From the sequence record PV189400.1: a stretch of 57,221 bases of DNA; one strand, 5' to 3'. The first letter of the stretch is position 1. Each line of letters starts with the position of its first letter. This document shows, piece after piece, positions 9,001 through 12,000 of this stretch. Source of the stretch: Escherichia phage vB_EcoP_phi296. Position numbers: made by a program.

Positions 9001-12000
9001 TCCTTGAGCGGGCAGAGGCCGCAGTAGTCAGCGCAGAGGAAGCCCGAAGCATGGCTGAGAATGCCAGAGGCCCCAAAGGTGATACCGGACCGAAAGGTGA
9101 TACGGGTCCTCGAGGGGAAACAGGTCCGGCGGGCCCTCAGGGGCCAACAGGTGCGCGCGGTGAGACAGGTCCTCAGGGTAGTGTCGGCCCGGCAGGTCCG
9201 CGGGGTGAGAAAGGCGAGCAGGGGGAGCGTGGACCACAGGGATTACAGGGGCTGAAAGGTGAAACCGGAGAACGTGGACCTCAGGGGGTACAGGGCCCGG
9301 CAGGCCCGACAGGAGCAACCGGACCGGCGGGTCCACGGGGTGAACGTGGTGAACAGGGCATACAGGGGCCAGCCGGAGCAACAGGACCTGTTGGGCCACA
9401 AGGAGAGCGCGGTATTCAGGGGCCTGCAGGTCCTGCGGGCCCGCGAGGTGAAACCGGAGCCAGAGGTGAAAAAGGAGACCCCGGGGACCCCGGCGGCCCA
9501 CCGGGACCAAAGGGTGATACCGGACCTGCTGGCCCTGCCGGTGAAAAAGGCGAACCCGGTGAGCGTGGGCCTCAGGGATTACAGGGGCCACCGGGTCCAG
9601 CCGGAGAGAGAGGGCCGACAGGCGAAGCCGGACCTGCGGGTCAACCGGGGCCCAAAGGAGACCCGGGTCCTGCTGGCCCACAGGGACCGGCGGGAGAGCG
9701 GGGAGCTCAGGGGCCTCAGGGTGTAGCTGGTCCTGTCGGCCCGGCAGGTGCAGCGGGCGCGAAAGGCGATAAAGGTGACCCCGGACCTGCTGGTCCTCAG
9801 GGGCAGCCCGGTCCTCAGGGACCTGCTGGCGAAACCGGACCCGCGGGTGAACCCGGGCCAAGAGGTGAGCCCGGTCCACAGGGACTTAAAGGTGACAGGG
9901 GCGAGCCAGGACCTACAGGCCCACAGGGACCGGCGGGAGAGCGGGGACCTCAGGGGCCACAGGGTGTAGCTGGTCCTGTCGGCCCGGCAGGTGCAGCGGG
10001 CGCGAAAGGCGATAAAGGTGACCCCGGACCTGCTGGTCCTCAGGGGCAGCCCGGTCCTCAGGGACCTGCTGGCGAAACCGGACCCGCGGGTGAACCCGGG
10101 CCAAGAGGTGAGCCCGGTCCACAGGGACTTAAAGGTGACAGGGGCGAGCCAGGACCTACAGGCCCACAGGGACCGGCGGGAGAGCGGGGACCTCAGGGGC
10201 CACAGGGTGTAGCTGGTCCTGTCGGCCCTGCAGGCGAACCGGGAGCGAAAGGCGATAAAGGTGACCCCGGAGGAACCGAACTGCTTGCTTCAGCCAATAC
10301 ATGGACTCAACCACAAACTATTAATGGCGATTTGACGGTAACCGGAAACGGCTCATTTAACGATGTTCAGATCCGTTCGGATAAACGTAACAAGCGAAAT
10401 GCAATACGAATAGATAATTGTCTGGAGAAGCTTGACCTGCTAACGGGTTATTTGTATGAAATACAGAATGCTGATGGCAGTTGGCAACAATCTGTGGGAT
10501 TATTTGCACAGGATGCGTTAAAGGCTCAACCAGAGTTAGTTACATCTGATACAGATATCATATCTGGAGAAGAGAGATTTCGATTAAATTATAATGGTGT
10601 TATTGCACTGTTAGTTGAAGGAATAAAAAATCTGCGTAAAGAGATTAGCGACCTTAAAGAGAAATAATAAAACAATCAGAGAACCATTAGTCTGAGGCAG
10701 AAGATAGTTGGTGTTATCGTCCGAATGACAGGAGGATGTTAAATGGGGGTTGCTTCCGGATGGGTTGGCTCCTCTGCCGTTAGTGTAACTGGTGAAAGGT
10801 CAATGAAATCGGCAGGTGCCAAACTTAAGCTAAGTACACCGTTTTATATGTCGCAAATGGTTGGGAAAAGTGTACAGGACTTTTCTATCACTGTAGGTCG
10901 TTCAAATTTTGTTGTTTTAGTTCAGGCAACAAATATACAAATTGTTCCTGTAAACAATAACTATGGAGGGTATTCTAATAACTCAACAACGACAGGTGCT
11001 GGCTCTGCCGTTTCCAGCCGTGTGCAAACACAAAATCCGGCTGGTTCAATAAATGGTTCGTTGTTAGGTTGTTCAATTACGCATCTTTCTCAAACGCAAG
11101 ACTCTACCAAGATGTATCTGGGCTTAACGAACGGGCCTAATCAAAACTTTACTCTATCATTTGATGGAACCAATATCTCATTCACACCATCATCATTTGC
11201 AAACAATACTCGGCATTATAGTGCAATAGTTTCTAAAAACTGGCTCTTTAATCAAAACGGAAAAACTATATCTGTTTATAAGGTTTAGAAGGAGTTGATA
11301 ATGTACAAATGTGTTTTAGCTGTATTGATATTATTATCTGGTTGCAAATCTTTGCCAACTCCGCTTTGCCATGGTAAAGCATATTTAGGTGGGGAAGAAA
11401 CTATAATACCAATTTATGGGATTAAGAAAAGCGGGAAGTATAAATTGTATCATGCAGGGCATCACTACAACTGGCGTTGGGTTGGTGCTGGAGCATTTGA
11501 CAGCACAACCTGCTCTCAAATAATGTAAACCGTATACTATGTATAAAATGTTTAGCTAATGCTAATTGATAAATTGTCATGAAACAGGCAAATCTGAAAT
11601 ACGTAAAGAAGCGCTACACAGCAGGAGATTTTTGTGTGGCTGGGTGCAGTGGCTGCCGTAATGATGCAATAAAAAGGGGAGCAACATGCTCCCCGACCAG
11701 AAGAAAGAAGTTTGATAACAATTAGTGAGTTGTTACGTCTCGTCCAGAATATCATAGCAACACTCTGTTGCAGTGATGCCGATCGCGATTTTAGCGAATT
11801 CCATCATAAATCCCCTGATTTTTAAGCCTGAAGCAGTCAAAGGAATTTCTATGCCTTATATCGATATCACCACGATGCGTGGGATGATGCCGCGCGTCGT
11901 GACATCCATGCTGCCCGATCATTCCGCTGTACTGGCGGAGGACTGCCATTTCCGGTTTGGTGTTATTACACCAGAACGTCAGATATCCGGGGTTGAGAAA

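Follow-up and report, generated by a model that had tools for sequence, protein, structure and literature searches.

The 57,221 nucleotides (nt) of sequence record PV189400.1, from Escherichia phage vB_EcoP_phi296 (this whole stretch is in the following called the window), contain an AT-rich block that begins within a collagen-like tail-fibre gene and holds two further small genes. One of them encodes a short tail-fibre adhesin of the gp38 type, the other a small lipoprotein of the Cor exclusion family. We propose that the adhesin gene and cor make up the last two of the three parts of an AT-rich module for the side-fibre tip that was exchanged horizontally. In the explanation we consider probable, this exchanged module carries, along with its gp38-type adhesin, a FhuA-directed Cor that acts heterotypically, i.e. 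against other phages. Public genomes of identical sequence already have both genes annotated; the genes, members of known families, are not a discovery. The features on which the argument is built are the following, with protein positions and lengths in amino acids (aa):

8403-10667, plus strand: collagen-like tail-fibre gene, whose 3' end (10275-10667) opens the AT-rich module.
10275-10667, plus strand: this 3' end of the fibre gene, encoding a 34-aa non-collagen tip (aa 625-658) and then the Peptidase_S74 chaperone domain.
10743-11288, plus strand: short gp38-type tail-fibre tip adhesin of 181 aa, starting with ATG and with AGGAGG upstream.
11301-11528, plus strand: cor, 75-aa prolipoprotein, starting with ATG and with AGGAG upstream.
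11301-11342, plus strand: predicted signal peptide of Cor (aa 1-14), followed by the codon of the predicted lipidated Cys15 (11343-11345).

The block at 10265-11660 has a G+C content of 39.5%, compared with 49.9% for the entire window, and only 0.6% of stretches of the same length are equally poor in G+C. The fall takes place at about 10270, at the transition out of the collagen repeats (68.7% G+C) of the fibre gene. The last ~130 codons of this gene, Peptidase_S74 domain included, are already AT-rich (39.7% G+C). The sharp drop noticed in the first-pass annotation is thus real, but it does not lie behind the chaperone domain, and the cassette starts inside the tail-fibre gene rather than after it. 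In a DNA alignment with phage 933W, homology stops at the very same point, the end of the collagen repeats (~10270), so that the fibre gene ceases to resemble 933W L0121 at its 10275-10667 segment. Homology restarts at ~11660 and identity is perfect from ~11770 rightwards. In place of the block, 933W possesses a different fibre end together with L0122 and L0123. From these limits of homology we delimit the exchanged unit to about 10270-11660; as read from the sequence, it comprises the fibre tip with its chaperone domain, the adhesin, cor and a short spacer. Horizontal acquisition, previously suggested by low G+C content, is supported by the coincidence of the low-G+C block with the loss of 933W homology and by the recurrence of the same trio on other backbones, described below.

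The adhesin is the open reading frame (ORF) that had been noted as rich in serine, threonine and asparagine and of unknown nature. Its length and composition were correctly described (34.8% of these three residues, compared with 12-19% in the neighbouring proteins); the word "unknown" no longer applies. Residues 1-40 align with the full 40-position Gp38_N profile (Pfam PF21721; E 1e-19, 70.6 bits, cut-off 25), and the full-length protein matches PHROG 1121, "tail fiber adhesin" (E 6e-66). These matches identify the 181-aa protein, at the level of sequence, as a gp38-type tail-fibre adhesin. The remainder, aa ~45-181, forms a C-terminal beta-sandwich without a solved relative, presumed to bind the receptor; a sequence search against PDB chains yielded nothing meaningful for the adhesin (best E 0.29). 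The gene starts directly after the fibre gene, which ends with PF13884. Within the fibre, the Peptidase_S74 domain begins with Ser659 (nt 10377, motif SDKRNK; PF13884 aligns aa 659-714, E 4.8e-8), and by analogy with the family, autoproteolytic cleavage would take place at this serine.

The same order, a fibre with chaperone domain and then an adhesin, is found in Klebsiella phage Roth21, in Salmonella phage SSU5 and in two of the elements listed below (L006, L009). Roth21 is T4-like, and its gp38 slot, flanked by the distal fibre gene on one side and the holin gene on the other, is filled by an adhesin homologue of ~29% identity. SSU5_022 is 44.5% identical to the window adhesin and was named "putative receptor-recognising phage tail fiber adhesin" by its depositors; a later paper cites SSU5 gp22 as a binder of the lipopolysaccharide (LPS) core oligosaccharide. 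The closest proteins known, the gp38 adhesins of T2, T6 and S16 type, combine PF21721 with PF05268. They share Gp38_N with the window adhesin, and their gene likewise lies directly behind a distal fibre gene ending in a cleavable chaperone domain. In other respects they differ. The PF05268-bearing proteins we saw are 261-274 aa long, whereas the window adhesin has 181 aa and, in a Pfam search, no match to PF05268 with its glycine-rich motifs and hypervariable segments; the polyglycine sandwich domain of S16 gp38 is replaced by the beta-sandwich mentioned above. The carriers differ too: T-even phages there, here a podophage that is temperate and has a fibre of collagen-like type.

The second gene, cor, begins 12 nt past the adhesin stop. 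The ORF caller placed its start at a TTG two codons upstream of the ATG. The N-terminus MYKCVLAVLILLSGC satisfies the PROSITE lipoprotein pattern: Lys3 precedes an uncharged hydrophobic stretch and an L-S-G-C lipobox (region VLAVLILLSGC) with Cys15, and a lysine occupies position +2. The predicted mature chain has 61 aa. The 75-aa lipoprotein with LLSGC lipobox proposed earlier is therefore present, and so is the suggested kinship with the Cor/Llp type. Cor scores 71.5 bits against the equivalog model NF047972 of NCBIfam (cut-off 31, E 4e-20, aa 4-72 of 75) and matches PHROG 1119 (E 3e-33), on the strength of which we assign the protein to the Cor exclusion lipoprotein family. In tblastn searches it is 43% identical to Cor of N15 and 42.5% to that of HK022, and relatives of ~30% identity in T1-like and Dhillonvirus phages are annotated as Cor or super-infection exclusion protein. 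A word-indexed protein search found near-identical sequences only. Exhaustive search of 1.8 billion representatives gave 24 matches, only ~20 of them true relatives, which are all lipoproteins of ~64-110 aa, mostly 75-84 aa. Four long proteins among the matches (P0018, P0021, P0025, P0029) were rejected as spurious, having many repeated matching stretches; inspection of P0018 showed a perfect tandem repeat. No Pfam model matches Cor, and no meaningful match came from a sequence search of PDB chains (best E 0.47).

In 17 aligned relatives the lipobox cysteine and Cys23 are invariant, Cys71 is present in 16, and W60 is nearly invariant. The conserved motifs are P-x-C, Y+AG, NW+WV and a C-terminal cysteine. 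In the mature protein the cysteine pair corresponds to Cys9 and Cys57 of 61 aa, in parallel to the Cys11-Cys58 disulphide of Llp (PMC9586334). An AlphaFold2 model made with the relatives' alignment as input has a mean predicted local distance difference test score (pLDDT) of 84, and it has the small beta-barrel fold of Llp type; Foldseek alone gave no significant hit with this model. Published work, including PMC9586334, reports that Cor inactivates FhuA and has the Llp fold. A 2026 preprint reaches the same conclusion about the shared fold and calls the mechanism of Cor still unresolved.

Comparison with characterised systems brings out both likeness and difference. Cor proteins of N15, HK022, phi80, mEp167 and T1 resemble the window protein in size (75-79 aa), lipobox, all three internal motifs and the C-terminal cysteine; those of N15 and HK022 are 42-44% identical to it, and their genes as well as the window gene lie downstream of host-specificity genes. 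These five phages, however, use FhuA themselves, whereas a phage of the window type is BamA-dependent and plates on a fhuA knockout. In these phages, moreover, cor comes after the J locus of the central fibre (in N15 the order is J, gp22, gp23, cor), and here it directly follows a side-fibre adhesin. T5 Llp (PDB 8A60 with FhuA, 7QJF) is 13% identical to the window Cor, with no family match at the level of sequence, and it is an early gene of a lytic phage which itself uses FhuA, unlike the window Cor.

Positions 10300-11900 of the window are 100% identical in Escherichia phages vB_EcoP_phi315, phi367 and phi419 and in Stx2-converting phage 86; in phi367 and phi419 even the coordinates equal those of the window. 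The record of phi367 names the products "tail fiber adhesin" and "Cor superinfection exclusion protein". In phage 86 the ORFs are called orf22, cor ("phage superinfection exclusion protein Cor like protein") and orf24, and the record marks all three as "O86 specific region1 (not found in O157)". Among 5,426 complete E. coli genomes, 53 (~1%) contain 80% or more of the cassette; O111:H8 strains belong to them, and so do O104:H4 strains such as HUSEC2011, which carry it at 97.4% identity. The NCBI pipeline label in cassette-bearing E. coli genomes is "cor: phage exclusion lipoprotein Cor". Phage records and E. coli genomes with the cassette all have an intact Cor frame, conserved at 99-100%. Phage 86 differs in the fibre gene itself. 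The collagen-like part of the window gene contains a 243-nt tandem duplication (9748-10233, copies 99.6% identical), and phage 86 orf21 is exactly 243 nt shorter; repeat copy number thus varies the fibre length among otherwise identical phages.

The module recurs on unrelated backbones (identities are to the window proteins):

L006-L008, ~225-kb elements related to a 222-kb non-mobilizable Enterobacter plasmid: fibre C-terminus 69%, adhesin 69%, Cor 58%; cor directly after the adhesin.
L009-L011, ~105-kb SSU5-like elements: fibre C-terminus 59%, adhesin 58%, Cor 57%; two genes between adhesin and cor.
L018, ~108-kb SSU5-like element: adhesin 55%; a 77-aa gene in the position of cor, with two genes between.

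The gap between adhesin and cor, 12 nt in the window, is 10 nt in L006. The pair of genes that separates adhesin and cor in the SSU5-like elements is distantly homologous to gp22 and gp23 of N15, where these two lie ahead of cor. The same holds for the fibre locus of Salmonella phage SSU5 itself (SSU5_021 to SSU5_025): the S74 fibre C-terminus is shared, the adhesin is 44.5% and Cor 51% identical, but homologues of N15 gp22/gp23 part the adhesin from cor and the carrier is a ~100-kb siphophage-plasmid. The fibre shaft in L009-L011 and L018 is of Gp34_trimer type; that of the window is collagen-like. Wherever the window-type adhesin was seen in context, in four cases, cor or what is left of it lies within 1.2 kb, and no cor was found within 4 kb downstream of the divergent adhesin type (~30% identity; L012, L013, L019). 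The remnant belongs to L016 (Logan SRR11015012), which has the same Stx-podophage backbone and an adhesin 76% identical to that of the window. At 4553-4700 of L016, cor is cut to its first ~24 codons (…LLSGCQTLPEPVC), and a deletion joins the stump to the conserved downstream block. The adhesin can thus persist without Cor. The stump keeps the signal peptide and the PEPVC motif, with a possible frameshift in a T-run.

Phage-plasmid-like elements also harbor a second Gp38_N adhesin gene near the first (L006 4800-5306, L009 5992-6816, L019 3198-3983), which in L009 and L019 is a full T2-type GP38 with PF05268. This suggests alternative tips for one fibre.

Seven podophages including phi315, phi367 and phi419 form plaques on all 54 Keio outer-membrane knockouts, fhuA766 among them, and purified BamA neutralises all seven (PMC12502783). 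The same paper leaves Cor and the adhesin undiscussed, and its mass-spectrometry maps for phi367 cover proteins other than the adhesin. A trait typical for the Cor family, if not strictly defining, use of FhuA by the carrier phage, is accordingly missing in phi315, phi367 and phi419. Because BamA-dependent phages form plaques on a fhuA knockout, a FhuA-directed Cor cannot exclude the window phage through its essential receptor. The receptor-masking exclusion gene of the first-pass annotation hence stands as a member of the Cor family, and falls as a mask of the phage's own essential receptor. Cor probably excludes other, FhuA-dependent phages. A secondary role, prevention of unproductive fibre binding, is possible only if FhuA is the target of the adhesin; it is made less likely by the report on SSU5 and by the N15-like context of cor in SSU5.

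In this probable explanation, the parts would act as follows. Once the fibre has trimerised, the S74 domain presumably trims itself off at Ser659, and Gp38_N of the adhesin presumably docks on the matured fibre tip. The beta-sandwich would bind a structure of the cell surface; if SSU5 gp22 is a guide, this may be the LPS core. Cor most likely acts in the manner of T5 Llp and would bind FhuA, a TonB-dependent transporter (TBDT) of the outer membrane, at its plug and its periplasmic face. Such binding would force the extracellular loops of FhuA inward, and FhuA-dependent phages (T1, T5, phi80, N15 and HK022 types) would then be unable to adsorb. Cor would thereby be a heterotypic exclusion gene riding with the fibre-tip module.

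Several points weigh against this scenario. No experiment on the window Cor was found in the searchable literature, and FhuA is presumed to be the target on the example of relatives that are 30-44% identical; the nearest relatives (51-58%) all lie beside this adhesin family. Exclusion lipoproteins with other targets exist, namely the mEpimmI Lpp proteins, which act on LamB-dependent phages, and jamming by lipoproteins was suggested to be TBDT-wide (PMC9586334). The receptor of SSU5 gp22 is a second-hand claim, made in a citing paper. Finally, the region has 4 promoter-like sites against 4.6 expected in shuffled sequence, and the terminator scan found no plus-strand terminator after cor. For this reason the expression of cor in a lysogen is unsupported by the sequence, and cor may simply be a late gene. 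As for the traits of a moron, deviant G+C content (39.5%) is evident; shuffled sequence has at least as many promoter-like sites, cor follows closely behind the adhesin gene and a plus-strand terminator is missing. We also considered cor as an independent transcription unit, and the promoter and terminator scan gave this no support. Virulent phages use late-expressed Cor and Llp, which guard their progeny from debris.

One may also imagine that adhesin and Cor are a cognate pair, a possibility we rate as rather unlikely. FhuA, or some other transporter, would then serve the adhesin as an accessory receptor that is not essential, and the adjacent Cor would mask the same receptor, keeping progeny off lysed cells and debris and related phages off lysogens. 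The almost equal spacing of both genes in the window and L006 is in accord with such pairing, as are the identities of adhesin and Cor, which drop in step over three backbones; linkage alone, though, accounts for the parallel divergence. Further, cor or its remnant accompanies the adhesin in 4/4 window-type contexts and was absent from the 4 kb downstream of the three divergent adhesins, but in SSU5-like elements it follows the gp22/gp23-like pair as in N15, which suggests that cor is tied to the J-tip locus and its adjacency to the adhesin is secondary. Cassettes of a receptor-binding protein and its cognate exclusion protein are the norm in T5 and Drexlerviridae, and an accessory receptor would be invisible in plaque assays on knockouts. 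Nevertheless, published receptor lists contain no gp38-type adhesin known to use FhuA, the SSU5 homologue is reported (second-hand, as above) to bind LPS core oligosaccharide and not a protein, and L016 has the adhesin without cor. Should the pairing hold, which we consider doubtful, fibre-tip chaperone, adhesin and mask would form a portable, self-contained "bind and then blind" module with FhuA or another TBDT as accessory receptor. This module would move among podophages, SSU5-like phage-plasmids and 225-kb phage-plasmids, and the window adhesin would be the first of gp38 type to have a TBDT as its receptor.

Two further readings depart from a FhuA-directed exclusion function altogether. 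The window Cor might represent a subclade with a different target, either another TonB-dependent transporter or BamA, the latter resulting in true self-exclusion. It does group with its 51-58% relatives, farther from the FhuA-validated proteins of N15 and HK022 (42-44%), and lipoprotein jamming has been proposed for many TBDTs (PMC9586334). We find this improbable nonetheless, given that the protein passes the equivalog-level Cor model, that most BamA-dependent Stx phages, e.g. 933W, lack cor, that SSU5-like siphophage-plasmids, for which the LPS core is the published receptor, have cor of the same subclade, and that BamA has no plug domain to jam. Even less credible to us is that the 181-aa protein is a fibre assembly chaperone similar to T4 gp38 and not a virion adhesin, with the lipoprotein unrelated to exclusion, e.g. 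an o-spanin-like or decaying gene. Some homologues of the adhesin in Klebsiella phages are indeed annotated "distal long tail fiber assembly catalyst". However, Gp38_N is the attachment domain of virion adhesins, SSU5 gp22 is cited as a receptor-binding protein, and a separate chaperone is unlikely since the fibre has an intramolecular one of its own, the S74 domain. The o-spanin identity was dismissed because the weak match to PHROG "Rz-like spanin" (E 0.024) is confined to the signal peptide, with none past residue 24. Degradation of cor in L016 would fit a decaying gene, but the frame is intact and conserved in cassette carriers. The exchanged fibre-tip module with a heterotypic, FhuA-directed Cor thus remains our preferred explanation.

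To the right of cor, the cassette ends with the following elements:

11529-11675, plus strand: cassette-specific 3' spacer, absent from 933W, overlapping most of a 48-aa ORF (11579-11725).
11676-11694, minus strand: G+C-rich hairpin GGGGAGCATGTTGCTCCCC then TTTTTATT, from the terminator scan.
ATG at ~11806, minus strand: 24-aa ORF MMEFAKIAIGITATECCYDILDET with an AGGGGA Shine-Dalgarno-like sequence.

The 48-aa ORF, orf24 of phage 86, has no Shine-Dalgarno sequence and no NCBIfam match, is hypothetical in public records, and is probably not a gene. A sigma-70-like site (TTGACA-16 nt-AATAAT, 11497-11524, plus strand, 11/12 consensus matches) is situated at the extreme end of cor and points into the spacer and this doubtful orf24. 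The hairpin is kept in 933W, unlike the cassette, and lies just inside the point where homology restarts (~11660), the right edge of the cassette. Read on the minus strand (11694-11676), it is a terminator-like hairpin ~35 nt downstream of the 24-aa ORF. From ~11770 up to 11851, where a gene for a 541-aa internal virion protein starts with ATG, identity to 933W is 100%. The stretch 11695-11850, whose left end adjoins the variable cassette, has no Rfam match, and no RNA families of Rfam were found in 10200-12200 as a whole.

The two other stretches of lowest G+C content in the window are 14351-16397 (minimum 41%) and 37801-39897 (minimum 39.5%). The former spans a gp22/gp23-like pair and lom. 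This pair, located after the J-like tail-tip gene, encodes proteins of 93 aa (14756-15037) and 208 aa (15034-15660), distant homologues of SSU5_023 and SSU5_024; the 208-aa protein matches N15 gp23 as well. A C-terminal ...VYD.NG.LRV.IG motif is common to the three tail-tip proteins. The order of J tip, small gene and ~200-aa gene is continued by cor in N15 and SSU5, but by lom here. The 93-aa and 208-aa proteins may constitute a tip-attached receptor-binding unit, for BamA in the case of Stx podophages.

As a discovery, the cassette has little weight: for years, sequences identical to it have borne the cor label in GenBank and RefSeq, and the family is curated. What remains of value is that Stx-type phages which depend on BamA carry an exclusion lipoprotein of FhuA type, the Stx2a prophage region in outbreak strains of O104:H4 being one of the carriers. 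If Cor is active, lysogens would be resistant to T1, T5 and phi80-type phages and impaired in uptake of ferrichrome and albomycin, with a bearing on phage therapy and on the ecology of Shiga toxin-producing E. coli. In the three-part fibre-tip module, genes for receptor specificity and exclusion co-travel across unrelated phage backbones.

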